NCBI GenBank assembly: GCA_047971315.1
Contig: JBKDZP010000004.1
Location: 5,466-69,465, forward strand
Reading direction: 5' to 3'
DNA length: 64,000 nt
Origin: Bacilli bacterium
Lineage (GTDB): Bacteria > Bacillota_I > Bacilli_A > RF39 > UBA660
Positions 2,203-41,612 of this stretch are shown piece by piece (positions within the stretch are counted from its first letter, which is position 1; each line of letters opens with the position of its first letter). A model generated the notes under the pieces. That model saw nothing but the letters and a program-made list of their open reading frames with translations. It was not told where the DNA came from and did no database searches. Both the position numbers and the translations under genes were made by a program.

Positions 2203-2231
2203 ATAATCACGCCCTCTCCTGCTGCAATTAA

Positions 2232-3640: not shown

Positions 3641-3648
3641 CCTTTCTT

Positions 3649-5893: not shown

Positions 5894-6106
5894 AATAACC
5901 TTGGTACCTAAAATGGTACCTAAAATAAATAAAAAGGCTGTGAAGCCTTATAAATAAACAAAAATGACCGGACTAGCCGGTCTTCAGGGGGTTTTTGTTT
6001 GTATTCTTAACTGAAAATCGTAAGAATACCTGCACGAATACCTCGTGCTATTATAATTATAAAATTTTTATTATTAAAAGTCAATTAAAAAATATAAATT
6101 TGAACA

Positions 6107-8089
6107 TTAATCAGTTGTTGAATTATTAATTATAAAATCTATCATATTTTTTTCTTTAACTGTATGTTCATATTGTAAATAAAGTTCACTATCTTCCTTA
6201 GCTTTAAGAAGAATTTTGTAGTCTTTTTTTAAATCTGCTATATTAAATACCATATCTCCGCTTTGTTTAATTCCAAATAAATCACCACTACCTCTAATTA
6301 AAAAATCTTCTTCGCTTATTTTAAATCCATCATTTGTTTGAGTTAGTACTTTTAATCTTTCTGTTTCTTTATTACTAATTAAAATACAATATGATTGCAG
6401 ATTATTTCTACCTACTCGACCTCTTAATTGATGAAGTGTTGATAATCCAAATCTAAAACTATCAAAAATAACAATCATAGTTGAATTTGGAACATCAACT
6501 CCAACTTCAATTACTGTTGTACTAATTAAAATTTGAATTTCATTATTTTTAAACTTTTCCATAACTTCATCTTTTTCATTATTTTTCATCTTACCATGAA
6601 GTGTTCCAATTTTATAAAACTTTCCAAATGCTTTTTTCATATTTTCTTCTATCAAATTCACATTTTTTAAATCACTATTTTCACTTTCCTCTATTAATGG
6701 AGCAATTACATAAATTTGATGATTTTTTTTTAATTCAATAAACATAGATTCTAAAACTTCAATTATTTGTGATTCTTTTTTTAATAACGTAATTATTTCT
6801 TTTCTTCCATTTGGAACTGTTTTTATACTTGAAATATCCATATCACCATATAAAGTTAATGCATAAGTTCTAGGAATTGGTGTTGCACTCATATATAAAA
6901 TATCTGGTGTTATTCCTTTATTTTTTAGATTACTTCTTTGATTTACTCCAAAACGATGTTGTTCATCAGTTATAACAAGCCCTAAATTATTAAAACATAC
7001 ATTATCTGTTAATATTGCATGAGTTCCGATTACAAAATTAATTTCCCCTGTAGATATTTTATTAATTATTTCTTTTTTTTCTTTATTTTTTATCTTTCCA
7101 GTTAATAAAGTAATTTGTATATTATATTTTTCAAATAATTTTTTTATATTGTGGAAATGTTGATTAGCTAATATTTCAGTTGGAACCATTAATGCACTTT
7201 GAAATCCTGCTAGAAAATTCATGTACATACTTATGATTGCAACAATTGTTTTACCACTACCTACATCACCTTGTAGTAATCTGTTCATTTGAAATTCACA
7301 ATTTAAATCATTATAAATATCAATGATACTTTTTAATTGATCTTCTGTTAATTTATAATGTAATTCATTAATAAATTGTTCTACTTTGTTAAAATCTATT
7401 TCCTTTTTTAATCCAATTCCCATATTTTTTTTATTTTTCAAATAATTCATTTTAAGCATAAAAATAAACAATTCTTCATATTTAAGTCGAGTTAAAGCTT
7501 TTTTCAATTTTTCTTGATTAAAAGGATTGTGTAATGTAATTATACTTTGTAGCTTATCCATAAACTTATATTTTTCTATAAATATTGATGGAATATAATC
7601 AGTTACCTCCAAATTTAAACTTAGAGCACTATTTATATATTTATGAATTTGATTAGATGTAATTCCATATGTTGTATGATAAATCGGTTCTAATTTTTCT
7701 CCTTTTAATAATCCAAATCTTAGATCACTTGCTACAATATTATTTTTAATTTTATTTATTTTTCCAATTACTGTTAATTCATTACCAATTTGCAATTTAG
7801 ACTTTAAAAATCCACGATTGAAAATAGTTATTGTTATAAGATTTACTCCTGTATTTAATTTAAAAGTCATTCTGTCTAATTTTTTATTTATGTGATATAT
7901 ATTAGGATTTGTTTCAATTATTCCATCTATTATTACCTTATCATCTATTAACTCATCCATATTTGTTTTTTTTATTGTTTCATATCTAAATGGATAGAAA
8001 TTAATTAATGAATTTAGATTATTAATTCCTAATTTATTTAGTAGTTTAACACCCTTAGGTCCAATTTTATAAATTTGTTCTAAAGTCAT
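6107..8089 (-). CDS. recG: ATP-dependent DNA helicase RecG. The start is probably the internal Met (MTLEQIYKIG).
   Basis: Motifs DVGSGKT, TDEQHRFGV, MSATPIPRT and QLRGRVGRNNLQSYC. A sigma-A promoter (TTGACA, 17-nt spacer, TATAAT at 8111-8139) overlaps the table's ATG at 8117-8119, so the GGTGA-preceded ATG at 8089 is favoured. Confidence 0.9.
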   Translation of the reverse strand: MTLEQIYKIGPKGVKLLNKLGINNLNSLINFYPFRYETIKKTNMDELIDDKVIIDGIIETNPNIYHINKKLDRMTFKLNTGVNLITITIFNRGFLKSKLQIGNELTVIGKINKIKNNIVASDLRFGLLKGEKLEPIYHTTYGITSNQIHKYINSALSLNLEVTDYIPSIFIEKYKFMDKLQSIITLHNPFNQEKLKKALTRLKYEELFIFMLKMNYLKNKKNMGIGLKKEIDFNKVEQFINELHYKLTEDQLKSIIDIYNDLNCEFQMNRLLQGDVGSGKTIVAIISMYMNFLAGFQSALMVPTEILANQHFHNIKKLFEKYNIQITLLTGKIKNKEKKEIINKISTGEINFVIGTHAILTDNVCFNNLGLVITDEQHRFGVNQRSNLKNKGITPDILYMSATPIPRTYALTLYGDMDISSIKTVPNGRKEIITLLKKESQIIEVLESMFIELKKNHQIYVIAPLIEESENSDLKNVNLIEENMKKAFGKFYKIGTLHGKMKNNEKDEVMEKFKNNEIQILISTTVIEVGVDVPNSTMIVIFDSFRFGLSTLHQLRGRVGRNNLQSYCILISNKETERLKVLTQTNDGFKISEEDFLIRGSGDLFGIKQSGDMVFNIADLKKDYKILLKAKEDSELYLQYEHTVKEKNMIDFIINNSTTD

Positions 8090-24219: not shown

Positions 24220-24894
24220 TTAAACAAAATCTTTTTCTTTTAAACTATTTTTTAATTTTTGTTTTATCTTTTCTTCTAATCTAGATACTTGAACTTGGTT
24301 TACACCAATATTATTAGCAATTTCATTTTGAGTTAAATTATCAAAATAACGCCATTTTATTATTTGTTGTTCGGTAATATTTAATTTTTCTAATTCGAAT
24401 TTTAATGCAATTAAAGTATTAATATCCATTTTTTTATCTTCAATAATATCATATAAATTTACTGTTTTCCCTTCAGAGTTTAAATCATCATCTAAACTTT
24501 GAATATTAGTACTATTTGTTATAACACTAATACAATATTCTAATTTACTAGTTGGTATATTTAATTCTAAAGCAATTTCATCAAGTGATGGCACTCTCAT
24601 ATATTTTTGAGTCAATAATATTTTTATTTTTTCGCTTTCATAATATATTTTTTTTAAAGTTGGACTTGGTCTTAATATCTTATCTTCTCTAATATATTTT
24701 TTCATCTCACCTAAGATATGCTTATAAGCATATGTTGTAAATTTAATTCCTAAATTCTCATCATATTTTTTATATGCTTTAAGAAGTCCAATCATACCTG
24801 CTTGATATAAGTCATCTTTATTTTGATACCACTCAAAATAATGAGTAAGTGAAAAAACAAAATTTTGATATTGTTCTATTAATTGATTATTCAT
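24220..24894 (-). CDS. Group-3 sigma-70 family sigma factor (SigF/SigG/SigB-like).
   Basis: 224 aa. Region 2 (DLYQAGMIGLLKAYKKYD...FTTYAYKHILGEM) and region 4 (LTQNEIANNIGVNQVQVSRLEEKI) closely match the SigF/G GISQVQVSRLEKKI motif. Confidence 0.8.
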   Translation of the reverse strand: MNNQLIEQYQNFVFSLTHYFEWYQNKDDLYQAGMIGLLKAYKKYDENLGIKFTTYAYKHILGEMKKYIREDKILRPSPTLKKIYYESEKIKILLTQKYMRVPSLDEIALELNIPTSKLEYCISVITNSTNIQSLDDDLNSEGKTVNLYDIIEDKKMDINTLIALKFELEKLNITEQQIIKWRYFDNLTQNEIANNIGVNQVQVSRLEEKIKQKLKNSLKEKDFV

Positions 24895-24903
24895 ATTTTT
24901 CTC

Positions 24904-25251
24904 CTATACATGTAATAATTTAAATGCATTTAATTCATTATTTGTTACTTTTAAATATTTAAATATTCTACTATTATTCAATCTAAATTTAACTTCATTG
25001 TCTTTTAAGCCACATATTAATAATTTTCCATTATTCTCTTTACACAGTTCATAACTATAAAATAATGTGTTTATTCCTCTTTCATCTATGTCAATTAAAT
25101 TTTCCATATTTAATACTACATTTTTCATTCCATTTTCTTTAATCAAATCATTTACTTTAGTTTTCAATTTTTCTACTGTAAATATACTTAATTCTCCATA
25201 TAATCTTACAAACAAAATTCCTTTTCGATATTCTAAAATAATTTCTAACAT
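24904..25251 (-). CDS. STAS-domain anti-sigma-factor antagonist (SpoIIAA/RsbV-like), without the canonical phospho-serine.
   Basis: A 115-aa STAS fold. It ends 10 bp upstream of the sigma gene. At the position of the DSSG phospho-site the sequence reads IDERG. Confidence 0.6.
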   Translation of the reverse strand: MLEIILEYRKGILFVRLYGELSIFTVEKLKTKVNDLIKENGMKNVVLNMENLIDIDERGINTLFYSYELCKENNGKLLICGLKDNEVKFRLNNSRIFKYLKVTNNELNAFKLLHV

Positions 25252-27966: not shown

Positions 27967-28855
27967 TGTTAGATTAAAAGGGGAATTTATGGAAAATAAA
28001 AATAAAATTGATTACACAATTATAAAATATAATCAATTATCAAAAGAGTTTGAAACTAAAAGAACATATAAAAAGACACTTCAAAAGGATTTAAACTATA
28101 ATGATAGTATTAAAAAAATATTAGAAGAAAAAATAAATAATCATGAAAATTTAATTAAAAATAAAAATTTAAAATACTCTAATGCCAGTAAATTTGCACA
28201 AAAACTTTTCAAAATTTCAAGTTGTATAACTTTAAGTACTATAATTGGTAGCAGTTTATTAATTGGAAATTCGGCAATTGGAACTATTTTTGGTAGCATT
28301 ATTGGAATTTCTGGTACATTTGCTACTAGTAGTGCCATTTATCATTTTAAACTTAAAAAAATAAAAGATGAGTTTAAAAAAAATATAATATATTCAAGTA
28401 ATGTATATAGAGCAAGAGATATTAAACAAATTGAATCATTTAATTATAGAATTACGGAATTATTAAAAAAAATATCTTTAGTTGAAAGTGAAATTAATAA
28501 TTTAAATATTGAAATTGATAAGCATAAAAATATTATAAACAATTTTGAAATTGAAAAAACAAATAAAGAAAAGATTTATTTTGAAAAACAAAATAAATAT
28601 ATTGAAAGATTATCTAATTTTATTATTAAAAGTGGAATTGATTTATCCTACTTCAATAATAATCCTGAGGATTATAAGGTAAATAATGCTCCAATTATTG
28701 GCGAAAATAATAGTAAAGAAATAAAAGTAAATAATTTTGAAATTATTCCTATATTAGAACAAATCTTACAATATAATGGAATAAAATTAGATAACTTTAT
28801 TGAAAATGATATTGATTTAACACATAGGTTAATAAAGGTAAGAAAATCACGCTAA
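27953..28855 (+). CDS. Hypothetical membrane protein with a coiled coil, co-operonic with the previous gene.
   Basis: 300 aa. The central Gly/Ser-rich transmembrane helices read ITLSTIIGSSLLIGNSAIGTIFGSIIGISGTFATSSAIYHF. The start overlaps the upstream gene. Confidence 0.4.
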   Translation: MLKNNVRLKGEFMENKNKIDYTIIKYNQLSKEFETKRTYKKTLQKDLNYNDSIKKILEEKINNHENLIKNKNLKYSNASKFAQKLFKISSCITLSTIIGSSLLIGNSAIGTIFGSIIGISGTFATSSAIYHFKLKKIKDEFKKNIIYSSNVYRARDIKQIESFNYRITELLKKISLVESEINNLNIEIDKHKNIINNFEIEKTNKEKIYFEKQNKYIERLSNFIIKSGIDLSYFNNNPEDYKVNNAPIIGENNSKEIKVNNFEIIPILEQILQYNGIKLDNFIENDIDLTHRLIKVRKSR

Positions 28856-29232
28856 ATAGTGTGATTTTTATTTTTTATAAATTCAGTTAGAATTTTAGTT
28901 AATGCTCTTTTTTCTATTCTAGATACATAACTTCTTGATATTCCTAATTTTTTAGCAATTTCTTTTTGAGTTACCTCTTTTTGATTTTCTAAACCATATC
29001 TATTTATAATTATTTCTTTTTCTCTATCATTTAAAATACTTAAATATTTTTTTAGATAATTAATATTATTTTGATTATGTATATCCAAAGCAAAATCTGG
29101 ATTTGGAGTTTTTAATATATCTAATAATGAAATTTCATTACCTTCTTTATCAAAACCAATTGAATCATTTAGACTAATATTTTTACTGTTTTTTTTATCA
29201 CTTCTAAAATACATTAATATTTCATTTGCTAT
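28852..29232 (-). CDS. sigK: 3' segment of a split sigK gene (spoIIIC-like; SigK regions 3-4). The in-frame upstream part of the ORF table entry (to 29319) is element sequence.
   Basis: [18 protein letters not shown]...[45 protein letters not shown] is near-identical in pattern to B. subtilis SigK ([18 protein letters not shown] ... LDDREKEVI..RFGL...[26 protein letters not shown]). Confidence 0.8.
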   Translation of the reverse strand: [126 protein letters not shown]

Positions 29233-30931
29233 CTTCGCATTGTGGAACAAATTTCTTTTCGCTTGTATTATTTTCACCGTCATTTTCATTAAAAAAATTA
29301 ATGAATAATGTTTCTCCATCAGTTTTAACTGAATGTATTAAAGCTCTAAGTAATGTTCTTTTTATTTCTAATGATAAGCTATCAAAAGTAGTAAAGTATG
29401 TATTAATGATATTTAATATAATTTCAGCTTGTGTCTCGTCTAATATATTACTATTAGAACTACTATTTTTAACCTCATTAATTTTAATATATATTTCTTT
29501 GTTTTTATCTTTTAGTTCTTTAATTTGTATATTGACTCGATTTAAAGCTTCACCGTCCAAATATAGTATTTTGCTAATGTAATTTTGAATTTCTTCTTCA
29601 TTTTGTTTATATGTTTTTTCAAAAAGTCTTAACTCCATAATATTTTTATCTTCTTCTTTATATTTTCCTTTGGACATATCAATAAGTTTTTTATAAACTT
29701 TTCCTGTAGGTGCAATAAGTTCTTTTACAGTATTCATAACTAGACTATCAACTTCATTACCACTAACATTAGGACATGTACATTTAGATTTACGACTTTT
29801 TTCTTTTAGTTCACACATATAATTAAAAACTAATTGACCTTCTTTATTAGTATAGTTTTTTAATTTAGGACGCATATAAGAACCACAATGAGAGCAACGA
29901 ATTAAACCAGATAGTAAAGCGTTATTTTTAGTCGGCTTTCTGTATCGTTTGTTTCCGTTTTGTTCAATTAATTCTTGAATTTCAATCCATTCTTTACCTG
30001 ATATGATTCCTTTATGCATACCAACAGAGATAATCCAGTCTTGGATATCGCGTTCATTAGTCGTTTTTCCTTTAATTTGCTCTGTTTTATTATAAACCAT
30101 TAATCCATATTTACCATTAAATTTATCTTCGTCTGCATATATTTCTACACCTAATTCTAAAAAATAATTATAAATATCTTTATCGGCAACAACATATACA
30201 GGATTTTGTAAAATATTTTTAATAGCAAACCTAGAAAAATCTATATTATTTTTAGTTTTTATATCATGTTGTATAAGATAAGTTTCTAATTTAGTTTGCG
30301 ATTTTAACTCTTTGTATTTTATATATATATTTTTAATAATATCAATTTCATCTTTTATAGGTGTTAATTTAAATAAACTTCTTTCTTTACCATCAATACT
30401 TATGTTTTTAACTTTCTCTGATTTAAAGCCTGTTGGAGTAGTACCACCAAGCCATCTACCAGTTTTTGCTAACTCTAACATATTATCACGGATTCTTTCT
30501 GCAATAGTATCTCGTTCTAATTGAGCAAAAACGCTAGCTATCATTAACATTGCTGTTCCTAATGGAGTAGAGGTGTCAAAATTCTCTGTTATTGAAATAA
30601 AGCTAACATCATATTGTTGTAGTGTATCTTTCATATTCGCAAAGTCAGACACATTACGACTTATTCTATCTAACTTGTAACAACATACACCTTTTATTTT
30701 TTTATTTTTAATATCATTAATCATAGATTGAAACTGTGGTCTTCTAGTATTATATCCCGTAAAGCCTTCATCTTCATATACCACAACTTCTTTTTCAATA
30801 TCTTCTATATTATATTTATATTGTAGGTGCTTTTTGCAAAGTTCTACTTGATTACCAACGCTATCTCCTTTGCCAGTAAATTTAGATTTTCTAGAGTATA
30901 TAGCCCATTTTTTGTTATTATCTTTATTCAT
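29222..30931 (-). CDS. Large serine recombinase (SpoIVCA-like) of the sigK intervening element.
   Basis: 569 aa. N-terminal resolvase domain (AIYSRKSKFTGKGDSVGNQ), a recombinase domain, and a zinc ribbon (CSHCGSYMRP...CELKEKSRKSKCTC). Its stop codon lies inside the recombination core at the element/sigK junction. Confidence 0.85.
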   Translation of the reverse strand: MNKDNNKKWAIYSRKSKFTGKGDSVGNQVELCKKHLQYKYNIEDIEKEVVVYEDEGFTGYNTRRPQFQSMINDIKNKKIKGVCCYKLDRISRNVSDFANMKDTLQQYDVSFISITENFDTSTPLGTAMLMIASVFAQLERDTIAERIRDNMLELAKTGRWLGGTTPTGFKSEKVKNISIDGKERSLFKLTPIKDEIDIIKNIYIKYKELKSQTKLETYLIQHDIKTKNNIDFSRFAIKNILQNPVYVVADKDIYNYFLELGVEIYADEDKFNGKYGLMVYNKTEQIKGKTTNERDIQDWIISVGMHKGIISGKEWIEIQELIEQNGNKRYRKPTKNNALLSGLIRCSHCGSYMRPKLKNYTNKEGQLVFNYMCELKEKSRKSKCTCPNVSGNEVDSLVMNTVKELIAPTGKVYKKLIDMSKGKYKEEDKNIMELRLFEKTYKQNEEEIQNYISKILYLDGEALNRVNIQIKELKDKNKEIYIKINEVKNSSSNSNILDETQAEIILNIINTYFTTFDSLSLEIKRTLLRALIHSVKTDGETLFINFFNENDGENNTSEKKFVPQCEDSK

Positions 30932-31117
30932 AAAAACATCTCCGTTCCTTTATGTGTATATTATAAATATATTATAACATAAAAACAACTATTATAATGA
31001 CTATTTTTATAAAACCCGAAAAATATAATATATTAATCCTTAAAAGATTTTATGTTATCAAAATATCAATTATACTTGGTGGTTGAAGAACTAAAAAAGC
31101 ACAATTTACATTGTACT

Positions 31118-32230
31118 TTAAAAGAAATCAATTATTGATGAAATATTAATAGTATCCAAATTATTTGCTTTAATAAATACTTTTAATGCTTTATCCTCAA
31201 CTTCTTTTAATATTATATTATAAGTTATACCATTATCTAACTTTGGAGCATAGAAACACGCAAAATCTCCAGACATAAAACCTAAATGATTATTATCTTT
31301 ATCAAGAACCTTAATGGCGTTTTTATCATATTGATTGTTATTGTCTCGTTCAAGATATAATTCATCATCAATTAACAGCTTTGAAACATGTTGTGCTCGC
31401 TCTTTAAAAGTTATCCCTACAACAGTTATAATATTGCTCATAATATTAATTTTTTCATTTTCCCAGTTAGGAATAATACTGCTGTATTTTTTATTTAACA
31501 AATAATATATATCACTATCAATTATTATTAATTTTTCGTTCGGAAATTTTTCTAAAAACAACTTTGTATTTTGCAAACTTCTATAATCAATATGTCCTTT
31601 TACTTCAATAAGTGTTTTGTTTTTTAAAATAAAGTCAGGTACATATAACTGTGAGGCATATAGATAGCTAGAGTTTTTAGAATCTAATTGAAATCCATCA
31701 GTTTCATACTCAAACTCAATATTTAAATGCTTTAAAGTTCTAGCTACATTTGCTTCCCATGATGAACGAACTTCCATCTGTAAATCATCTCTAAATTCAT
31801 TTTTAAACTGTTGACTATAATTGTTTTCTTCATGATTAGTTAAAGCATTATCTAAATTTTTATCATTTACAGTTTCCTTATCTTTTTTAACTAAATTATT
31901 AATAAACTCGTCATTGTCTTCTGGCCACTTTGAATAACTACAATTAGGAAATGTTGAGCATCCATAAAAGTATTCATTAGTTTTTGTTTTCTTTACTAAC
32001 AAATCATTTCCACACTCTGGACATTTTCCAAACACTATATTACTATTGTCGTTTTCTTTTTCAATATATTTACAATTAGGATAATTAGAGCAACTGGTAA
32101 ATTCTCCAAATCTACCACGTCTTCTGACTAAATCATTTCCACATTTAGGACATTTCCCTACAATGATAGGCTTACTCTCTATATTAGTTTTATGAATATT
32201 AGTTAATTTCATAAAAGCACCTCCATACAA
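31118..32230 (-). CDS. Fusion protein: two TopoIA-type zinc ribbons, a PD-(D/E)xK-like nuclease and a C-terminal HIRAN domain.
   Basis: Two CPxCG...C..C ribbons (CPKCGNDL..CSNYPNC and CPECGNDL..CSTFPNC). A middle YVPDFILKNKTLIEVKGH region is D...ExK-like. The C-terminus reads VVGITFKER...YDKNAIKVLDKDNNHLGFMSGDFACFYAPKLDNG, a HIRAN pattern. Confidence 0.5.
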   Translation of the reverse strand: MYGGAFMKLTNIHKTNIESKPIIVGKCPKCGNDLVRRRGRFGEFTSCSNYPNCKYIEKENDNSNIVFGKCPECGNDLLVKKTKTNEYFYGCSTFPNCSYSKWPEDNDEFINNLVKKDKETVNDKNLDNALTNHEENNYSQQFKNEFRDDLQMEVRSSWEANVARTLKHLNIEFEYETDGFQLDSKNSSYLYASQLYVPDFILKNKTLIEVKGHIDYRSLQNTKLFLEKFPNEKLIIIDSDIYYLLNKKYSSIIPNWENEKINIMSNIITVVGITFKERAQHVSKLLIDDELYLERDNNNQYDKNAIKVLDKDNNHLGFMSGDFACFYAPKLDNGITYNIILKEVEDKALKVFIKANNLDTINISSIIDFF

Positions 32231-32302
32231 ATATATTATACCATAACTTACTCGAATAGAGTAATACTAATTTTTTCAATAAATGAGAAAATATAAATAG
32301 AT

Positions 32303-32551
32303 ATGTGTGGTGATAAAATGTTTGATAGAACTAATGAAAATTTTGTATATGAATTAGTTAGCAAGAATATTAAAAAGCAACGACAGTTAAAAGGTTGGAC
32401 TCAAGAAGAGTTGGCTGATAAGATAAATTATTCTACTCAGTTTATTTCTAATATTGAAAGCAAAAACCTTCAAACGTTTTCACTGGGAACACTATGGAGA
32501 ATAGCGCTAGTATTAGAAGTTGATATTGCTACTTTTTTTCAAGAAGATTAA
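32303..32551 (+). CDS. XRE-family HTH transcriptional regulator (Cro/cI-like).
   Basis: LVSKNIKKQRQLKGWTQEELADKINYSTQFISNIE is an HTH_3 motif. Confidence 0.7.
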   Translation: MCGDKMFDRTNENFVYELVSKNIKKQRQLKGWTQEELADKINYSTQFISNIESKNLQTFSLGTLWRIALVLEVDIATFFQED

Positions 32552-32691
32552 TTCTTCTTTTTTTGTAAGAAGAAAGCAAAAATTCTTTTGCTTCCGAGGT
32601 TTATACTAAAAAATATGGATTTTCAGTTGTAAAATACCCCTATATATTGTAAAAATATATAATTATACATTATATTATGTTCAGGTAAAAA

Positions 32692-33657
32692 TTACTTACT
32701 ATTCTTTAACACATCTTTCTTCTTGGATGTGTTTTTTTCATGTATTTGTCTAACTTTATTTCGATAGTTAATCATTTTAGCTGTGTTAGCTTCTTCTTCT
32801 TTTTTACGTTCTTCATAATCAAGCTTAGCACTAAGATTCATTTTAGTATATTCTTTAGGGGATAAAATATCAGGTTGTTCATAGTTATTAATAGTATTTG
32901 CTAATTGTGCATTATCAATCTCTTGTTTCTTTTTTTCAGAGTATTCAATCCATTTTACAATATCTTTTGATTTTCTGATTCTTTTCATTAACTTTTGAAA
33001 AGCGAGCATTGCCTTAAGTTCATATAATTGCTCATCTTCATCATTGTAGAAACAATTATCAAGCATGGTTTTAGCCTCACATATTTCCTCACCTTTATCA
33101 TTAAAAAAACTCTGTGTTTCATTGATAAAATATTTATCATCAATGTATGGATTTTCTTTACTAGGATAAACCATATAAGAAAGTATGTCCCTTAATATGT
33201 TTTCATCTACACTTGATATTAAAGTGTTATAGAAAACTAAAGCACTATTTTCATGACTATTAATAAGACCACCATTGGGAACTGGTTTTGAACTGTTGAA
33301 TCTGCCATTAAATCTGTTAACGTTTTCTGCCATCATGACTCTAGCTTGTTTATTTAATAAACTCTCACCATTAGTTAAACTACTTTTATAATCAATCCCT
33401 AAAACATCTTTAACATCCAAGTCATAGGTTGTAATCATTGAAATTAAGTAACTAAAATTTTGTATACCTTTACCGCTCTCGTAATTTTTGATTGTTGTTT
33501 TAGAACAACCTAGAATCCTAGACACTTCTGTTTTTGTTAAACCTTTTCTGTCTCTTGCACTTTCTAAAGTCTTTCCTATTAATTTAGTATCCATAATTAT
33601 ACCTCCATCAAGTCCAATTTTGTGGATTATTATTATAACAATCCACAAAATCAACAC
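32692..33657 (-). CDS. XRE-family HTH regulator with a long C-terminal domain (repressor-like).
   Basis: N-terminal HTH (LIGKTLESARDRKGLTKTEVSRILGCSKTTIKNYESG) plus about 230 aa of unknown C-terminal domain. Confidence 0.55.
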   Translation of the reverse strand: MLILWIVIIIIHKIGLDGGIIMDTKLIGKTLESARDRKGLTKTEVSRILGCSKTTIKNYESGKGIQNFSYLISMITTYDLDVKDVLGIDYKSSLTNGESLLNKQARVMMAENVNRFNGRFNSSKPVPNGGLINSHENSALVFYNTLISSVDENILRDILSYMVYPSKENPYIDDKYFINETQSFFNDKGEEICEAKTMLDNCFYNDEDEQLYELKAMLAFQKLMKRIRKSKDIVKWIEYSEKKKQEIDNAQLANTINNYEQPDILSPKEYTKMNLSAKLDYEERKKEEEANTAKMINYRNKVRQIHEKNTSKKKDVLKNSK

Positions 33658-33900
33658 TTTTTATAACATAATTGTATCACAAACTTTTATATATTAAAAT
33701 CTTATCAGTTGCCGATAATGTAATTGTTAGCAACTGTGGATATATAGATACTGTAGTAATTAAGAATAGAAAACTAAATAATGATTTATGTGCTTAGAAT
33801 CGTTATTTATAAGCATTTTTCTAATTTTAATATAGGTATCTATAAATTCCTATATCTTCATGAAGAATATATGTATTTTTACCTATAAGGAGGTGTTTTA

Positions 33901-34398
33901 GTGGCAAGGATGTTGTTTGATAAAGATACTGGTGAATTAATTGGCGAGTTTGATGATAACCAAATTATCATGTCCTATGATATCAATAATTTACGTAGAG
34001 GACATTTAAACAAGAAACTATTCTATAAGTTTTATGTTGATTCGGTTAATATCTTTACAAGTGGATTATTAACTTTACCGGTTGTAAACACATTTTTCAA
34101 TTTAATTAAACACCTTAATATGAATATGAATGAATTTGTGTCATTCAACGGAATGCCTGCCAATATAGAACAAATTGCAACTAAGTTTGACGTTAGTAGA
34201 AAAACAATTTCTAATCATTTAAAGATGTTAGAAAAACATGATATGGTACGAAAAGTGAAAGTTGGTAGGCAACGACATATTTTAATTAACCCATATTTTA
34301 TTAGTTATGGAAATAACAACACAGATGAATCACTAACAATATTTTCTAATACAATTTGGGCGAAAACTACGTTTAAAAGAAGGAGAAAAATAAGATGA
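33901..34398 (+). CDS. RepL-like winged-helix replication/maintenance protein.
   Basis: 165 aa. The stretch NEFVSFNGMPANIEQIATKFDVSRKTISNHLKMLEKHDMVRKVKVGRQRHILINPYFISYGNN parallels the pSN2 RepL segment NNTMIATTREIAKATGTSLQTVITTLKILEEGNIIKRKTGVLMLNPELLMRG. Confidence 0.45.
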   Translation: MARMLFDKDTGELIGEFDDNQIIMSYDINNLRRGHLNKKLFYKFYVDSVNIFTSGLLTLPVVNTFFNLIKHLNMNMNEFVSFNGMPANIEQIATKFDVSRKTISNHLKMLEKHDMVRKVKVGRQRHILINPYFISYGNNNTDESLTIFSNTIWAKTTFKRRRKIR

Positions 34399-34676
34399 AA
34401 AATATAAAAAAGGCAATAATGCTTTTAACTAGAATAATGACCGATTTTGATTGGCAGGATGGAATAATTGAGAAAAATGGAAAAGCAATAAGTATTTCAA
34501 AAATAAGGGAGTATTTTCAATCAAATGGTAGTTTTTTTTATCAATCGATTAGACTTTTAGAAAATAATGGTTTTTGTAAAAGAAAAAGATTTGATGGAAA
34601 AGAAAAATACTTGATATTAGATAATCGTTTATTGTATCGTTTTCAAACAATGATTAGTGGTGAAAATGATGAGTAA
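34395..34676 (+). CDS. Hypothetical protein.
   Basis: A 93-aa ORF coupled to its neighbours. Confidence 0.3.
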   Translation: MKNIKKAIMLLTRIMTDFDWQDGIIEKNGKAISISKIREYFQSNGSFFYQSIRLLENNGFCKRKRFDGKEKYLILDNRLLYRFQTMISGENDE

Positions 34677-34905
34677 GTTTCACGTTAAGATAGAAGAACA
34701 AGAATCTTGGACTTTCTATGATTATGAAAATAAAACTGTCTCAATATGGACAAATCGTCCTAGTTGTGCAAGAAGAATATCGAAAGTCTTAGGCGAACCT
34801 GATGGAGGAATATCACCGTGGGCTAGTTGGCTTATTTCATTCGATGATAAAGTCACTATTAGAAAAGCATCAGCAATTAATAATTTTTTGCCATTATCCA
34901 AATAA
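34657..34905 (+). CDS. Hypothetical protein.
   Basis: An 82-aa ORF overlapping the upstream stop. Confidence 0.3.
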   Translation: MVKMMSKFHVKIEEQESWTFYDYENKTVSIWTNRPSCARRISKVLGEPDGGISPWASWLISFDDKVTIRKASAINNFLPLSK

Positions 34906-34945
34906 ATTAAGTTTAGTTTCATAAACTTTATTAGGAGGGATTGCT

Positions 34946-35131
34946 TTGAAAGTGGTGGTAAACTTACCTTTTGAAGAAGACGATAAAAACATTTTCGAAG
35001 ATAAGATTGCTACTTTTCATGCAACCTTACTTCTAGAAACAATAGATAAACTAGATATCAATAATCAAAACAAGAAAATAATTTTAAATCATATTCTTAA
35101 TAAACTTAAAGAATTAAATTTAAATAATTAA
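34946..35131 (+). CDS. Hypothetical small protein.
   Basis: 61-aa ORF. A terminator hairpin (CCTATAT/ATATAGG + T-run) follows at 35138-35168. Confidence 0.3.
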   Translation: MKVVVNLPFEEDDKNIFEDKIATFHATLLLETIDKLDINNQNKKIILNHILNKLKELNLNN

Positions 35132-35201
35132 AAATAAGCGCCTATATTGTTAGATATAGGTGTTTTTTGATGATATAATGTATATATATGGGGTGATAAT
35201 A

Positions 35202-36581
35202 TTGAAAAAGAATGTGGAACATGGAGTCGTTAAATATAAAGACAAAGATTATACTTACTCTTATAAAGATAATATTATTACACTGACGCCAAAAGAATTA
35301 GAACCATATTGGCAAAGTATGTTTAAAAAATTTAAGAGAGAAGAAAAAGAAGAAAATGTTTATGGAATAACTAATTCAAACTTCCCAGTAGCATTTATAA
35401 AACTTAATTTAATAGATATAGGTGGCGGAGTTTTGCAAGCTTTTGTTCCTGCATACATTGTTGCAAACGCAAATACAGTATCGCCATTACCAGAAATAAA
35501 TAATTTTAAATCAATGACTTTTTATGGTGATTGCATTAATTCTTTATATAATCCTAAACAAATGATTAAGGATTCAGATGTAACAAAAAAATACAAGCCT
35601 TATATGAAATTTAAACATCCTAAAGAAGTTATAAAAAACATACTAGTTAACAAACTTGACTTCATATTTAGGATTACATGGGAGTTTCCTATTAAAGATA
35701 AAGTACCTGCTGTGCTTTTAAAGTCTTTGTTAGAAATAAAGTTTGATAGTAAAAAAACTATTGATGAAATTATAGAATACTATCAGCAAGTTAAAATGCT
35801 GTTTAGTTTCATTAATAATAGGCACTATATAGAATTTTCAGACATATTATTAAAAGCTGATATGTTTGTTGAAGACTTTCCTGATAAAAAAGTTAGAAAT
35901 GTTGGAGTAAGCTATAATTTATATATTATTCTTCCAAAAGATGTTAAAGTTGATTTACCTAATTCAATATATGAAACAAGGTTGAATAAGATTGAAAATC
36001 AATTTGAGAATTTATTTAATACTTTAAATAAATGTGGTGGTTATAATTTACATTTTCCAGATAATCAATATGATGAAGACCACGTTGATATAGATAAATT
36101 TTTAAGAGTTGCATCCGCATTTGAATCATGGTTTGATATTAATTTTGATGACTTCAAATCTGATACTGACTTATTATATAAAATTTTAAAAAATGATGTG
36201 CTAAAATTTATTGCAGAAAGAGGAAAAAATACAAATGCCACTGGTAGAGACTATTTAAAACGTTTTAAGAATGAAATAGAACGTCAGGAGGGTACTTTGT
36301 TAGAGCAATTGTTGTATTCATATCAAATCTTTGAAAATTGTGTCAAAAAGGTTAAAGAACGAATATATAGGCATTATAATTTAGATGATGTAAAAATAAA
36401 TGATATCTTTCTAGCTTTAGCAAAAAAAAGAAATCGCTTATCGCATGGCGATATAAACGATTTAGGATTTTCAAAAGAAGAGATAGTTGCATTTATAATT
36501 TTAGAGAGATTAATTCAATGTTTAATATATTATAAGGCAGAATTTAGCTTAGATTCAATAAGCGAAATAGTTGATAAATAG
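35202..36581 (+). CDS. HEPN-domain abortive-infection-like protein (ApeA-like N-region plus a C-terminal Rx4H HEPN motif). The TTG start at 35202 is favoured over the table's ATG at 35160.
   Basis: GGGTGA lies 5 nt before TTG. The ATG at 35160 sits inside a TGATATAAT extended -10 element (35171-35179). The C-terminus LAKKRNRLSHGDINDL carries the R-x4-H HEPN catalytic signature, as in Abi_2 (AbiD/AbiF) and ApeA-HEPN proteins. Confidence 0.5.
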   Translation: MKKNVEHGVVKYKDKDYTYSYKDNIITLTPKELEPYWQSMFKKFKREEKEENVYGITNSNFPVAFIKLNLIDIGGGVLQAFVPAYIVANANTVSPLPEINNFKSMTFYGDCINSLYNPKQMIKDSDVTKKYKPYMKFKHPKEVIKNILVNKLDFIFRITWEFPIKDKVPAVLLKSLLEIKFDSKKTIDEIIEYYQQVKMLFSFINNRHYIEFSDILLKADMFVEDFPDKKVRNVGVSYNLYIILPKDVKVDLPNSIYETRLNKIENQFENLFNTLNKCGGYNLHFPDNQYDEDHVDIDKFLRVASAFESWFDINFDDFKSDTDLLYKILKNDVLKFIAERGKNTNATGRDYLKRFKNEIERQEGTLLEQLLYSYQIFENCVKKVKERIYRHYNLDDVKINDIFLALAKKRNRLSHGDINDLGFSKEEIVAFIILERLIQCLIYYKAEFSLDSISEIVDK

Positions 36582-36586
36582 GAGGA

Positions 36587-37729
36587 ATGACTATGATTAT
36601 ATATAATTTAATGGACATAGCAAGGAAACTTAAAATTGATTTTGATGGAATTACTTCAAAAATTGAGCATAATGGTCAAAAAGGTGATACTCGAGAAGAA
36701 TTGTTAAAAGAAAGTCTAGCGCAATTTATACCACAAAAATATAGTATAGGAAATGGAATAATAGTAGATAGCAATTTGGTTCAGAGTAAGCAACAAGATT
36801 TTATTATCTATGACGGATTTAATAGTCCTCTTATGTTGAAAAAGCAATCAATGCAAGTTGTACCAATCGAGAGTGTATATTGCACAATCGAAATAAAGTC
36901 TACATTAACAAAAACCGAATTAGAAAAGTGTGTAGCTAATATTAAAAGTGTTAGAGAATTAGAAAAAGTTTGTTTACAAACATCAGCTATCGTATATGAA
37001 AACGCAAATAATACTATTGGATTTGTTTTTGCCTATACTTCTGATAGTTCTTTAGACACAATTTATGAAAATTTAGTAGAAATGAATAAATTGATAGAGC
37101 CACATCACCAAATCAGTGGAATATGCATTTTAGATAAGGGATTAATATTAAACGTTTCTAAAAATGGAATGAATCAATTAGAATTATATCCAAATAAAAA
37201 TAGTACTCTATGTTGTTCTGATAATCCTTTAGAAAATAATTTGTATTTGTTTTATTTATTAATACTTCAGCATTTAAATATTTCAAAATTATTGCCACCA
37301 GATTTAATTAAATATGCCGAGAAACAAAATGCGTTTAATATTAGGTCACATATGAAAATAGAATTATTACCAGATGATGGAAAAGTAAATATAATGGATG
37401 GTTTAACTTTTGATGTGAAAGATGTAAAAAAAATAAATGAAATACATTCACGAATGACACCCTTTTTTAATGGTAATTGTAGTGAGCAAGAAACTGAAAA
37501 GCATCTTGTTGAAAATATAATTCCTATGCTTGAAACATTTAGTAAGTACCAAACCGTTGGCGGTGTTATAGGAGGTAATAATAATGAACCAATTTTACCT
37601 TCTGATTTTGAATTTATCAAAACAACTTATTGTAAAAAAACGAATAATGAAAAAATAACCGAGGAAGAATTGGTAAAATATAATAACTTAATTACATCAT
37701 TTGTTTCAAAAAAAGATTCAACGAATTAA
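36587..37729 (+). CDS. PD-(D/E)xK nuclease-like protein (possibly DUF6602-like), co-operonic with the HEPN gene.
   Basis: 5-bp gap to the upstream gene. The N-terminus reads GDTREELLKESLAQFIPQKYSIGNGIIVDSNLVQSKQQDFIIYD...VVPIESVYCTIEIKSTL, which gives the D...E-x-K restriction-endonuclease-fold signature. Confidence 0.4.
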   Translation: MTMIIYNLMDIARKLKIDFDGITSKIEHNGQKGDTREELLKESLAQFIPQKYSIGNGIIVDSNLVQSKQQDFIIYDGFNSPLMLKKQSMQVVPIESVYCTIEIKSTLTKTELEKCVANIKSVRELEKVCLQTSAIVYENANNTIGFVFAYTSDSSLDTIYENLVEMNKLIEPHHQISGICILDKGLILNVSKNGMNQLELYPNKNSTLCCSDNPLENNLYLFYLLILQHLNISKLLPPDLIKYAEKQNAFNIRSHMKIELLPDDGKVNIMDGLTFDVKDVKKINEIHSRMTPFFNGNCSEQETEKHLVENIIPMLETFSKYQTVGGVIGGNNNEPILPSDFEFIKTTYCKKTNNEKITEEELVKYNNLITSFVSKKDSTN

Positions 37730-37851
37730 ATTTCTTGAATTTTTTTAATATACTTATGATACTACATTTCAAATAATTGAAAATAAAAAATATTATTTTT
37801 ACATGCAGACATTTTAAATGATATAATATTCTTAGTAAAGTAAGGTGAATT

Positions 37852-39576
37852 ATGAATATATTAGAAGAGTTAAATAAAAAAGGTGTTACTTTAAACATTA
37901 GGTACTGTGGAGCTGATGATATGTTAACTGGGTTTATGGCAAAAGAATTGCTAGAAAATCAAGATGATATTTTAAAGCATTATCAACATAATAAAATTGA
38001 TAATGTTAATGAATATATAGATTATATATTTTTAGAAATATTAATGAAATTTTTTGAAATTGTACCACTAATCATTATTGAAGAAAAAAGAGAATCATTT
38101 AAGCAATTTTTAGATAAATGTAAAATAGTATATGACAAATATATAAAGAAAGACGTTATATTTTTTATAAAAAACCATTATTTAGATATTTATAGTTATA
38201 AAGATAATGAAGACAGCAGTTTATTTTTAGAACTTGATTTAAAAGATTATACTTCTATTTTTATTGGTATGAATTTTAATTCATTTTCTATAACAATAAT
38301 TGATTATGTTATTACAATTGCAACTTTTGATGTTATAGATAGTTTTGAAATTTGGGGAAAATATTTTTATAAAAATCCTAATCAACTAAACAATCTTTTT
38401 AATGAAGAAAATATTAAAAAAGTTTTTAACATGAGGTTTTCAGAAGTTAGTGATATTCTAGAAGCTTTAAAACCGAATAAAAAGTTTTCGACTATAATTT
38501 CTAATACAATTGATATTATATATGGAATAGTGAAGGAAAACTACTTTAATCCGAAAGACGACACAGGAATTTGGCAAAGTTATTATATGTTAAATGATAC
38601 ATTAGTCTTTTTAAAAAAAATGAACTCAACTTATATTTACGAGCTTGAAAAAGAATTATATCAAATAGAAATAAAGTTTAATGAAAATTTAATGAAAACA
38701 GGTTACACAAGTACTTTTGAGTACAACTTAAAACCATTTGTAGAGTTTTTTGAAAACAAAACCAGTCCATGGGAAGTTAGGATTGTTTACTTAACCCATT
38801 TTCAAGATAAAGAAGGTAATTTATGTAGTTTTTTAGAACATGGTGCTAAATCTAATATAAAAGCTTTGAGCGATGAAATTGCTAGAAAAAATCCTGGAAC
38901 TGATGACTATTTTACTAGTTGGAGGTTAAGGAATTTATCATTACAGATATTTGAAATAAAAGCACGCATAATGTCTATATTTCAAAAAAAAGAAAATGTT
39001 AGTGAATATATTTCTGATATATATGGTGAGTTAAAGTATATTTGTGAAAATAACAATACTACAATGGAACTAGAAGAATTAACTGATAATGTGGAGATGC
39101 TATCACAATATTTAGCTGATTTGTTTATTAATTTATCGACCGAGAAATCTACAGAAATGACAATAAAAAATACTATTTATGGATGTTCAATCTTTGTATG
39201 TAGTTTAATAGAAAAAGTTCTTCGTATTATTTATAAAAATAGTTTAAGGGAAATATTATATATACCCGATTCTGGTATTACATTAGGTACATTACTTAAG
39301 GAAGAAGATAAAAATAATAGTATTATAATTGACATATTGGGTAAGGAGCAAATAAAGTGCCTTAGATATTTTTTACATAAAACTGAAAATGGAATTGGTG
39401 ATAATATAAGAAATGATTTGGCTCACTTAAATGGTAGAACTCCAAGACGGTTAAATTATGATTTAATTACTGAACTACTTTCATATTTAAGCTCTATACT
39501 AAATAGTTGCGTATTATATTATCAAAGACAAACAAATAATAAGTCAAAGGAGTTAGATTCTATTGAAAACAGCTAA
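37852..39576 (+). CDS. Large protein with a C-terminal HEPN (DUF4145-like, RN..AH motif) domain.
   Basis: 574 aa. The C-terminus GIGDNIRNDLAHLNGRTPRRL carries R-x4-H. It has its own promoter (TTTACA ... TGATATAAT at 37819-37827) and AAGGTGA ribosome-binding site. Confidence 0.45.
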   Translation: MNILEELNKKGVTLNIRYCGADDMLTGFMAKELLENQDDILKHYQHNKIDNVNEYIDYIFLEILMKFFEIVPLIIIEEKRESFKQFLDKCKIVYDKYIKKDVIFFIKNHYLDIYSYKDNEDSSLFLELDLKDYTSIFIGMNFNSFSITIIDYVITIATFDVIDSFEIWGKYFYKNPNQLNNLFNEENIKKVFNMRFSEVSDILEALKPNKKFSTIISNTIDIIYGIVKENYFNPKDDTGIWQSYYMLNDTLVFLKKMNSTYIYELEKELYQIEIKFNENLMKTGYTSTFEYNLKPFVEFFENKTSPWEVRIVYLTHFQDKEGNLCSFLEHGAKSNIKALSDEIARKNPGTDDYFTSWRLRNLSLQIFEIKARIMSIFQKKENVSEYISDIYGELKYICENNNTTMELEELTDNVEMLSQYLADLFINLSTEKSTEMTIKNTIYGCSIFVCSLIEKVLRIIYKNSLREILYIPDSGITLGTLLKEEDKNNSIIIDILGKEQIKCLRYFLHKTENGIGDNIRNDLAHLNGRTPRRLNYDLITELLSYLSSILNSCVLYYQRQTNNKSKELDSIENS

Positions 39577-40591
39577 TATAAGTAGAAACAATCATTTTGT
39601 TTCACAAATGTATCTTGATGCCTGGAAAAATACTAACAATAAAGTCATGGTGTATGATTTACTAGTTCCAAATGAAAGGGTACCAATATGGACTCCTAAG
39701 TCCACAAAAAGTGTTGGTAGTATGGATAGTTTATTCGTAAGACTTAAGCATGACAAAGAAATAGATGATATAGAAAAATGGTTTTCAACAGAATATGAAT
39801 ATCCTGCTAAGGATGTATTAGAAAAAGTGATTAATGAAGATAGAATTAGTGAAGAAGAATGGCATAAATTAATTGATTTTGTTGCTTGCCATATTGTTAG
39901 GTCACCATCATTTCTAATAAGAACTTTAGAAACAGCTAAAAAAGATTGTATTCCAATTTTTGAAGAGGAAGCCAAAGAAATTCCAGAAAAGATTAAAAAT
40001 AAAATTAAAAAATCGGTTGCAAAAAAAGATTACGATGATGAACTATTTCCATTAAAAGTAACCAATATTGGTGACGATGAAACTGGTGAAAATAGTTTAT
40101 ATAAAGTAGAGACAATATTTGGAAAGCAATTCTATTTGTGGATAATGAAACACTTGCTAGGAAACACATGTAAGATTTTACATAAGCATAAGTGGTCAAT
40201 TATAACAGTAGACGAAAAAGTAATTTTACCAACTAGTGACAATCCTGTTGCATGTATTAATTATAACGATGAAAATGATTATAATTTTGTTGGAGGTTGG
40301 GGACGCAAAAACAGTAATATTTTGTTTCCTATTTCACCAAATAAAATATTATATACACAGGTTGGCACTAAACGTATTCCAAGAATAAAAGCTACTTATG
40401 AAATGAGTCTAATATTCAAAAAAATTATAGTTGAAAATTCATATAAATGCATAATTTCAAATTTTAATGATGATGAAATTCCTAAGATAAAACCAAGAGT
40501 AGTAGATTTAAATATTTTTTTGGAGGAAAAAGAGAAATGGAAAGATTTTCAAAAAAATTATATTGAAAAAGAATCAGAATTTATAAAATAA
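39563..40591 (+). CDS. DUF4238-family protein (the family used by the single-gene Rst_DUF4238 anti-phage system), translationally coupled to the upstream HEPN gene.
   Basis: The N-terminus NNHFVSQMYLDAWKN matches the DUF4238 hallmark (HYVPQFYL.(N/R)F). It overlaps the upstream ORF by 14 nt. Confidence 0.5.
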   Translation: MKTANISRNNHFVSQMYLDAWKNTNNKVMVYDLLVPNERVPIWTPKSTKSVGSMDSLFVRLKHDKEIDDIEKWFSTEYEYPAKDVLEKVINEDRISEEEWHKLIDFVACHIVRSPSFLIRTLETAKKDCIPIFEEEAKEIPEKIKNKIKKSVAKKDYDDELFPLKVTNIGDDETGENSLYKVETIFGKQFYLWIMKHLLGNTCKILHKHKWSIITVDEKVILPTSDNPVACINYNDENDYNFVGGWGRKNSNILFPISPNKILYTQVGTKRIPRIKATYEMSLIFKKIIVENSYKCIISNFNDDEIPKIKPRVVDLNIFLEEKEKWKDFQKNYIEKESEFIK

Positions 40592-40611
40592 TTAATCAAT
40601 ATTATACAAAA

Positions 40612-40643
40612 AAAGATTTAATGGACTAATTCCTTAAATCTTT
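40612..40643. terminator. Bidirectional hairpin terminator between convergent genes.
   Basis: A perfect 10-bp stem AAAGATTTAA/TTAAATCTTT with a 12-nt loop, flanked by A/T runs. Confidence 0.45.
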
Positions 40644-41121
40644 TATAGTGCTCTTTAGACATTGTATTCATACCATATTCCCATCTTTTAATTGTTGTAT
40701 AGCTAACTTTCATTCTTTTTGCTAATTCAGTCTTACTAATATTTTCTTTTAATCGGTATTCTATTATTTTTTGAGAGGGATTATCTAAAAGAAAACCTAT
40801 ATATGTGTTTGACTTCTTTAGTGGTTCAGCATCTATTTTATCAATAATAGCTTGTACAAATTTTTTGTCATAGTATTTGATATTTTTATTATTTTCTACT
40901 GCCATTATTTTATCTCGAGATACATTTAATAAATCTGCTAACTCAGTTTGTTTTATATCATTTAGACGCCTATAATATTTAATCTTTTTACCTAATTCAC
41001 TTTGCTTATTAATAATTGGCAATTTCTTATTAGAATGAAGTTTATATGAATGATTTAGATTTACTTTATTTTTGATGTTTTTATATAGTACATGAATACC
41101 TAAATATAGTTCCATGAAGTT
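40618..41121 (-). CDS. Double-HTH XRE-family regulator at the right end of the element. The start is uncertain; the table ORF reads across the sigK junction.
   Basis: Two HTH_3 motifs (LGKKIKYYRRLNDIKQTELADLLNVSRDKI and IIEYRLKENISKTELAKRMKVSYTTIKRWEYG). Confidence 0.5.
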   Translation of the reverse strand, partial: NFMELYLGIHVLYKNIKNKVNLNHSYKLHSNKKLPIINKQSELGKKIKYYRRLNDIKQTELADLLNVSRDKIMAVENNKNIKYYDKKFVQAIIDKIDAEPLKKSNTYIGFLLDNPSQKIIEYRLKENISKTELAKRMKVSYTTIKRWEYGMNTMSKEHYKRFKELVH

Positions 41122-41124
41122 ATC

Positions 41125-41459
41125 ATTGCATTTTCTATACATCTAGCACAGTAAGTAGTTATTCTAGTACCATGTTGATATGAGTAACTATCTACTCCTT
41201 TAATTAATCCAATTGTTCCAATGCTTATTAAATCATCAGTATCTTCTTTTTTATATTCATATTTTTTAACTATATGAGCTACTAATCTTAAATTATGTTC
41301 TATAAGTTTATTTCTTGCTTCTAGATCACCTAGTTTAGCCTTTTTAACGCATTCTTCCTCCTCTTCTTTTGATAATGGATTTGGAAAAACATTATTTGAA
41401 TATGCTGCAGTAAAAAGATAAAAGTCTTTAAATAAATATCTAATTATTTTTAAAAACAA
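41125..41459 (-). CDS. sigK: 5' segment of the split sigK (spoIVCB-like: pro-sequence plus regions 1.2-2). The last residues of the ORF (MITSWNYI) are read-through into the element.
   Basis: [89 protein letters not shown] parallels B. subtilis SigK [90 protein letters not shown]. Confidence 0.8.
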
Positions 41460-41612
41460 AATAAAATCACACTCCTAAATAATATTACGTAATTCAATTT
41501 GTCCATTATGACTAATATATAAATTTATAAATATTATTTAAAATAAAAAAAAGAAAAGAAATTTTCTCTTTTAAATATATTACTTATAGTTTAAATCAAA
41601 TTAAAATAATTT

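Follow-up and report, generated by a model that had tools for sequence, protein, structure and literature searches.

Rst_DUF4238, a single-gene system cloned from a P2-like phage hotspot, protects E. coli against T7 (Rousset et al. 2022, PMC9122126). The initial annotation of the locus described here had taken DUF4238 for a single-gene system from satellite hotspots, which is right as to the single gene and misplaces its source. HEPN domains of the DUF4209 or C6orf70 family are found in operons related to restriction-modification (R-M) (Anantharaman et al. 2013, PMC3710099).

Here we analyse a two-gene operon, in a 64,000-nucleotide stretch of DNA (the window), in which the gene for a large HEPN-type protein (A) runs directly into a DUF4238 gene (B). 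We regard it as more likely than not that A and B are two separate, autonomous anti-phage defence genes, co-transcribed as cargo of an 11.9-kb mobile element that splits the sporulation sigma factor gene sigK.

Results

Layout of the A–B operon

The features of the operon, all on the + strand, are as follows.

37798–37827, + strand: candidate promoter of the A–B operon, TTTACA-18-TG-TATAAT (consensus match only)
37842–37848, + strand: Shine–Dalgarno-like AAGGTGA 5′ of gene A, from reading of the sequence
37852–39576, + strand: gene A, open reading frame of 574 aa, ATG start
39548–39553, + strand: AAGGAG, ribosome-binding site of gene B, within the 3′ end of A and 9 nt upstream of the TTG
39563–40591, + strand: gene B, open reading frame of 342 aa, TTG start, DUF4238 protein

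The TAA stop of gene A lies at 39574–39576, giving the 14-nt overlap with gene B that had been recognized at the outset together with the two reading frames. We considered whether a mis-called start could have created this overlap. No start codon in the frame of B precedes the TTG at 39563, and the sole later alternative, an ATG at 39609 (M16), would drop the conserved residues R8, N10, H11 and Q15 as well as position 1 of the Pfam model, which aligns at residue 9; the TTG call is therefore sound. The range first assigned to the locus, 37819–40591, needs adjustment at its left end, where 37819 belongs to the −10 element and the gene starts at 37852.

An operon promoter had also been proposed, and the top promoter-like score in the interval 34800–41600 does fall just upstream of A, at 37798–37827 (11/12 with an extended −10 TG), as a consensus match only. 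No terminator was detected between A and B, this one candidate promoter would serve both genes, and the tight junction, with the ribosome-binding site of B inside A and a 14-nt overlap, implies that the two are co-expressed. The TGATATAAT sequence had been noted as common to this promoter and the neighbouring HEPN/nuclease operon. A second copy is indeed present at 35171–35179, ahead of the ApeA-like gene. With 15 occurrences of the 9-mer across the window versus ~5 expected, however, it is a generic strong −10 in a 25% G+C genome rather than a mark linking the two operons. Signals for translation recur in related loci: GGTGA 5′ of A is conserved in L060, L056, L001 and L007, and a purine run resembling the ribosome-binding site of B lies inside the last codons of A in the same four.

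Gene A, a predicted HEPN ribonuclease

39154–39546, + strand: C-terminal HEPN domain of A (residues ~435–565), DUF4209/C6orf70-like
39409–39426, + strand: R520-N-D-L-A-H525, predicted HEPN catalytic R-x4-H motif, from conservation and translation

The AF2 model of protein A (pLDDT 78.8) is all helical: the first ~430 aa form one helical region, and a HEPN domain follows at the C-terminal side. This domain is modelled as a four-helix up-and-down bundle, and its best structural matches are solved HEPN structures. At the sequence level, the window protein matched nothing in Pfam, PADLOC or NCBIfam, and a PDB sequence search with the A-family profile returned nothing meaningful. A word-indexed search gave 24 close cluster representatives, and an exhaustive profile search showed the family to be larger, with 343 representatives, nearly all of ~550 aa.

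Across 76 diverse family members, down to ~20% identity, no columns other than G516, R520 and H525 are invariant, and N521, E454 and R458 are conserved at ≥90%; the R-x4-6-H motif typical of HEPN domains is thus present and conserved. The stretch NIRNDLAHLNG, first placed at the end of this protein, corresponds to residues 518–528 (nt 39403–39435) and lies ~50 residues before the C-terminus. The broad A alignment is too diverse for pattern scanning. A candidate second HEPN motif in the middle of the protein (RLRN, 358–361) was rejected for lack of conservation across the wider family.

The initial annotation was correct in calling the domain HEPN and less so in choosing the DUF4145 subtype. 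None of the 76 members matched DUF4145 (PF13643), whether as full-length proteins (E ≤0.01) or as C-terminal fragments (E ≤0.05). By contrast, C-terminal fragments of 27 of the 76 matched DUF4209 (PF13910; best 4.9e-7), one of them above the gathering score (24.6 versus 22.3 bits), and the matches span the EKxLR helix through the helix after the RNxxAH motif. Family member P0104 has a weak precomputed PF13910 match. The window protein itself gave no match to PF13910 even at E ≤1, so membership of A in DUF4209 is transitive and distant, resting on its homologs. We predict from these comparisons that gene A encodes a protein with a C-terminal HEPN domain of the DUF4209/C6orf70-like type and is an RNase.

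Gene B, an ordinary DUF4238 protein by sequence

Residues 9–300 of protein B align with positions 1–278 of the 281-position Pfam model PF14022 (3e-27; 96.2 bits versus a cutoff of 27), and residues 6–269 match the PADLOC model PDLC03000, DUF4238-Pers, more distantly (8.5e-11; 39.9 bits). Together with the DUF4238 motif NNHFVSQMYLDAWKN at residues 9–23, these matches uphold the family first assigned to the 342-aa protein. Its homologs form 74 clusters, all annotated PF14022. Protein B matched DUF4238 alone and no nucleotidyltransferase family or known antitoxin, and a PDB sequence search with the B-family profile yielded nothing meaningful.

The operon as cargo of a sigK-intervening element

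29224–41129 (approximate ends), − strand: sigK-intervening (skin-like) element of 11.9 kb, carrying the operon as cargo
29222–30931, − strand: large serine recombinase of the element (Resolvase, Recombinase and Zn_ribbon_recom domains)

The element lies between two parts of sigK, a Sigma70_r4 fragment (28852–29319) and a Sigma70_r2 fragment (41100–41459), with junctions reading CARCIEN/AMITSWNYI (then a stop) and AN/EILMYFRSDKK. Joining the halves restores a 233-aa SigK that aligns end to end and scores above the cutoffs of the TIGR02846 equivalog (303.4 versus 298.65) and NF004471 (315.9 versus 252). The closest NCBIfam similarity of the recombinase is to XisF/Ccr-type recombinases, below their cutoffs. 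Elements of this family measure 6.6–12 kb, less than the skin element of B. subtilis; in the window element the large serine recombinase lies at one end. Excision would presumably remove the cargo from the chromosome of the mother cell and leave it in the germ line.

Most of the cargo in the window is defence-like, and a gene for an ApeA-like HEPN protein and one for a NucC-like PD-DExK nuclease adjoin the operon. This cassette is missing from the syntenic L060 element, showing that independent defence cassettes build up at this site. A recurring ApeA/NucC partnership was considered and dropped: the ApeA-type gene at L065 is not significantly similar to the ApeA-like gene of the window, and the gene downstream of it is unlike the NucC-like one.

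Distribution of the pair and of its members

The arrangement of A followed by B was found in five loci only, all from one clade (the window, L060, L001, L056 and L007/L008, the last being a pair of near-identical records treated as a single locus). Order and strand are the same throughout, the junctions measure −14, +2, +2, +3 and +2 nt, and the paired proteins have diverged to 66–72% identity with the junction intact, so the tight two-gene operon first proposed is a real and conserved arrangement. Four of the five loci (the window, L060, L001 and L056) belong to the same sigK element family and only L007/L008 lies in another kind of element; the repetition is thus mostly a matter of shared ancestry.

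These features could indicate a genuine two-component defence in this clade, a lineage-specific elaboration of Rst_DUF4238 in which one protein, perhaps the DUF4238 protein, detects infection or modified nucleic acid and the other, the HEPN RNase, carries out the response, or in which B modulates A. Constant order and orientation, junctions of −14 to +3 nt, the ribosome-binding site of B inside A, a single promoter with no terminator detected between the genes, and persistence in five loci at 66–72% identity all argue for such a system. Moreover, the paired B genes form a clade of their own in a neighbour-joining tree, and no fewer than two kinds of element carry the pair (sigK elements and that of L007/L008), as expected of a functional unit.

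The relatives outside these loci point the other way. Relatives of A at 64–66% identity (L058 and L059) have no B and stand beside R-M genes, relatives of B at 59–65% identity have no A, and the pair is absent from the 15 other A contexts and ~40 other B contexts surveyed. By neighbour joining, the solo L058 and L059 genes fall among the B-linked A genes, which thus do not form a monophyletic group, and the solo B genes are sister to the paired B clade. The ~40 solo B loci lack both an A-family gene in their vicinity and a conserved partner upstream. With four of the five pairs descending from one ancestral element, they are not independent repeats, and in E. coli a DUF4238 gene is active without a partner (PMC9122126). 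The coupling of HEPN and DUF4238, initially described as obligate, is therefore not obligate, as the partners do not consistently co-occur even within the subfamily, and we consider a two-component system unlikely, if still the foremost of the alternatives.

The survey of A contexts is small, with ~20 A loci covered in a family of 343 cluster representatives. Five of the 15 informative solo contexts abut R-M genes: A directly follows type I hsdR in L012 and L067, lies beside a type III mod/res pair in L009, and precedes hsdM in L058 and a Dam-like methylase in L059. Other solo A genes lie in conjugative or integrative elements. Protein A had no match among 50,697 phage records, and plasmid records searched with window A and the distant family members P0120 and P0200 gave no match beyond a single Bacillus cereus plasmid, on which the 351-aa upstream neighbour of the A relative is not a DUF4238 protein. 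In IMG/VR there was one relative of B and none of A.

This distribution also bears on two further explanations. First, A and B could be a toxin–antitoxin-like module stabilizing the sigK element, with the HEPN protein as toxin and the DUF4238 protein as its neutralizer. However, B is neither a nucleotidyltransferase, as the partner in a HEPN–MNT pair would be, nor a known antitoxin; A, at 574 aa, is far larger than HEPN toxins; and the putative toxin comes first, an atypical gene order. In addition, some close homologs of A stand without B, one of them (L011) being a pseudogene, so that A is not lethal alone. We judge an addiction module improbable. Second, A and B might serve the element or the host outside defence, such as by processing RNA or by regulation tied to sporulation-time excision; in favour of this idea, they reside in an element that is expected to excise in step with sporulation. 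Against it stand the recurrence of A-family genes on unrelated mobile elements and next to R-M systems, the demonstrated anti-phage member of the DUF4238 family (PMC9122126), the defence-like genes in the adjacent cargo (ApeA-like HEPN and NucC-like PD-DExK nuclease) and the presence of the pair outside sigK elements in L007/L008. Such a role seems about equally improbable.

Discussion

We favour two autonomous defences stacked in one cargo operon. That A and B act in defence in their host, and do so independently of each other, is our inference. In protein A, the N-terminal helical region would probably hold the protein inactive and sense an infection cue. The C-terminal DUF4209/C6orf70-type HEPN domain could then cut RNA via R520-x4-H525, an activity that, by analogy with other HEPN enzymes, likely needs dimerization, and the outcome of activation would be growth arrest or abortive infection. 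Pairing with B would probably reflect compaction of a cargo operon, with no physical or functional dependency between the proteins.

There are several implications. First, if the defences are stacked, the locus is another case of defence genes piling up at a mobile-element cargo hotspot, which is useful for annotation and unsurprising, and a family of small sigK-intervening elements is the carrier of the A–B operon. Second, a label is now available for the A family, mostly invisible to Pfam: DUF4209-like HEPN proteins tied to R-M systems and mobile elements. Finally, there is a slim chance that, in one lineage of Bacilli mobile elements, DUF4238 took on a large HEPN RNase of the DUF4209 type as its obligate partner or effector. 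In the two-gene system so formed, DUF4238 might sense and HEPN kill, or the reverse; this too we think doubtful. A recruited HEPN partner would nevertheless provide the first functional handle on DUF4238 proteins, and a two-component system would offer a route to their mechanism.

Compared with Rst_DUF4238, gene B has a full-length DUF4238 match, a PADLOC match, a similar size and carriage on a mobile element. It differs in its place directly downstream of a HEPN gene, to which it is tightly coupled in a two-gene operon, in its host, a low-G+C sporulating Bacilli MAG, and in its carrier, a sigK-intervening element rather than a P2-like prophage. The A family shares with the DUF4209/C6orf70 (ERMARD) HEPN family, PF13910, the same R-x4-H motif and bacterial members linked to R-M, whereas its own conserved N-terminal region of ~430 aa (T315-H316, D341, TDDYFT) is without recognizable relatives. 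With the DUF4145 family, A has in common a HEPN domain, an R-N-x-x-A-H-like motif and R-M and Abi contexts. In contrast to the single-protein HEPN Abi effectors (the AbiA C-terminal domain, AbiD/F, AbiJ and HepS), A lacks sequence-level membership in those families and has an unrelated N-terminal domain. As in the skin elements of Bacillus subtilis and Clostridioides difficile (for example, PMC5025042), sigK in the window is split, a large serine recombinase lies beside one junction and the halves rejoin to a full SigK; what sets the window element apart is a cargo made up mostly of defence-like genes.

Operon architecture

The interval flagged in the initial annotation is filled by two ORFs on the same strand, A and B, in a window of about 25% G+C.

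Features of the A-B operon
37798-37827: promoter-like site TTTACA-18-TG-TATAAT, top-scoring within 34.8-41.6 kb
37852-39576, same strand as B: gene A, 574-aa ORF, ATG start; NIRNDLAHLNG at residues 518-528
39548-39553: AAGGAG, 9 nt upstream of B's TTG
39563-40591, same strand as A: gene B, 342-aa ORF, TTG start; NNHFVSQMYLDAWKN at residues 9-23

B's TTG is the earliest start codon available in its frame and lies 14 nt from the end of A's TAA, so the genes overlap. The overlap is genuine rather than a mis-called start: beginning instead at M16, the next candidate start, would cost B N-terminal residues that are almost invariant, along with the opening positions of the Pfam model. No terminator-like site was found between or after the two genes in a scan of 34.8-41.6 kb. 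The proposal that the operon has its own promoter fits the promoter-like site at 37798-37827. The TGATATAAT 9-mer that the upstream operon also carries is generic, as the window holds 15 copies against about 5 expected.

Gene A is a predicted DUF4209-like HEPN protein

Searched against Pfam, PADLOC and NCBIfam, window protein A gave no match. By word-indexed search its close relatives number 24 clusters (at least 44% identity); exhaustive profile comparison with 1.84 billion representatives yielded a family of 343 representatives (134 at E <=1e-30), nearly all of them full-length proteins of about 550 aa. Across 76 diverse aligned members, G516, R520 and H525 are the sole invariant columns, which makes the R-N-x-x-A-H motif the defining feature of the family; conservation is at least 90% at N521, E454, R458, Y443, L482, N551, T315, H316 and D341. 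Scanned one by one, 9 of the 76 full-length members and 27 of their 76 C-terminal fragments (best E 4.9e-7) matched PF13910 (DUF4209), and one fragment passed its gathering score, the alignment starting at the EKxLR helix, spanning the motif and reaching the final helix. Stray matches were to HEPN_Swt1, Csm6_HEPN and HEPN_AbiA_CTD, and none of the 76, full-length or fragment, matched DUF4145. By these profile comparisons, A is predicted to belong to the DUF4209-like branch of HEPN proteins; the initial assignment was right about HEPN but not about a DUF4145 subtype. Anantharaman et al. 2013 (PMC3710099) assign DUF4209 to the C6orf70 family of HEPN domains and note that this family 'occurs in R-M related operons'.

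The N-terminal helical region of A (about 430 aa) is family-specific. In mid-protein, A-family members have near-invariant T315-H316 and D341 (38794-38874, residues 315-341) as well as a TDDYFT motif, which reads NPGTDDYFT in close relatives (38890-38916, residues 347-355); these could make up another active site or a site for ligand binding or sensing.

Gene B is a DUF4238 protein

B matches Pfam DUF4238 over the entire model (3e-27) and PADLOC DUF4238-Pers (8.5e-11), confirming its initial assignment, as well as a PHROG without assigned function. PF14022 is present in all 74 B homolog clusters found; sequence search recovered no related solved structure. Directly 3' of several remoter DUF4238 genes, which share about 43% identity with B, lies a conserved 378-380-aa gene starting MKLEEYKSGEY..., overlapping in some, a possible different DUF4238 partnership (L020 6046-7188, L021 1988-3124, L033 5734-6870).

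Distribution of A and B

A is followed directly by B in five loci: the window, L060, L001, L056 and L007/L008, the last two near-identical and counted once. Junctions are -14, +2, +2, +3 and +2 nt, the RBS of B lies inside A in all five, and proteins of the other pairs are 66-68% (A) and 67-72% (B) identical to those of the window. Four of the five pairs are not independent, because L060, L001 and L056 carry them in the window's element family at the same site. In neighbour-joining trees, paired B genes form a single clade sister to solo B genes, as a lineage-specific two-component system might show, whereas B-linked A genes are paraphyletic, with L058 sister to the window and L059 nested among them. 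A also occurs in 15 contexts without B.

Loci carrying A without B
L058: 66% identical; next gene an HsdM-type methylase
L059: 64% identical; next gene a Dam-like methylase
L012, in the region 2923-7686: directly 3' of type I hsdR
L067, in the region 1-7677: directly 3' of type I hsdR
L009, in the region 2055-7701: adjoining a type III mod/res pair
L002: conjugative element
L065: edge of a tyrosine-integrase element
L061: Bacillus cereus plasmid
L003-L006, L013, L068: A without B
L011, 5986-7699: A split into two ORFs (290 + 275 aa), Bacillota MAG

The L011 homolog is likely a pseudogene, consistent with a dispensable, possibly costly defence gene. Linkage of this unannotated HEPN family to R-M genes recurs in L012, L067, L009, L058 and L059.

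Conversely, P0031, a solo protein 65% identical to B, adjoins a serine recombinase, and 37 metagenome B loci (identity up to 61%) contain neither an A-family gene beside B, by A-family HMM, nor a conserved upstream partner of any kind. The initial annotation found a real operon and, HEPN subtype aside, read its domains correctly; this distribution does not support the obligately coupled two-component variant of Rst_DUF4238 that it put forward. A two-component system confined to the paired lineage is unlikely, and a toxin-antitoxin-like stabiliser, given the solo and split A genes, is less probable still.

A skin-like carrier with variable cargo

Carrier element and upstream cassette
28852-29319: Sigma70_r4 fragment, resuming at EILMYFRSDKK
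about 29224-41129: carrier element, about 11.9 kb, splitting the sigma gene
29222-30931: large serine recombinase, within the element
31118-32230: Zn-ribbon/HIRAN/endonuclease-I-like protein, element cargo
35160-36581: ApeA-like HEPN gene (ApeA_NTD1 1.5e-4, HEPN_Apea 0.021, both below cutoff)
36587-37729: DUF6602/NucC-like PD-DExK gene (PADLOC 1.4e-39)
41100-41459: Sigma70_r2 fragment, ending ...CARCIEN, unrelated residues after

The rejoined sigma halves pass SigK equivalog cutoffs at full length, and the carrier is a skin-like sigK-intervening element, a type already known (e.g. PMC5025042). Other cargo comprises a cI-like repressor, a DnaD-like wHTH protein and two defence-like operons; the L001 element, only about 6.6 kb, holds recombinase, Fic, A and B. 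Genes for a STAS protein and for a sigma factor containing r2, r3 and r4 (24220-25251) lie near the split sigK, and the L001 locus shares the neighbourhood order STAS-HAAS-PadR-sigK. By position alone they look like candidate spoIIAA and sigF, an assignment that would suit a spore-forming host.

Comparison of window 35100-37729 with L060 8900-9010 shows that the L060 element is syntenic but without the ApeA-like/NucC-like cassette (35160-37729). The terminator hairpin and TGATATAAT promoter 5' of the cassette are orthologous to the L060 promoter directly 5' of A, so the cassette sits between the ancestral promoter and A; the GTG at 35160 overlaps that promoter, and the true start of the ApeA-like gene is thus probably downstream. 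Either the window's lineage gained the cassette or that of L060 lost it, which marks a site where defence cassettes come and go. A role for A and B outside defence is the least probable reading.

The best-supported reading, which we consider probable, is that A and B are two autonomous defence genes, co-transcribed as cargo. Two cassettes would have fused once into an operon that was then inherited and separated at least twice, the simplest account of trees and distribution. A may act as an Abi-like HEPN RNase with its N-terminal region as sensor or regulator, and B as a second defence gene that would act independently of A. Functional data on DUF4238 in the literature amount to one datum: a lone DUF4238 protein from a P2-like phage hotspot gives E. 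coli strong protection against T7 (PMC9122126).
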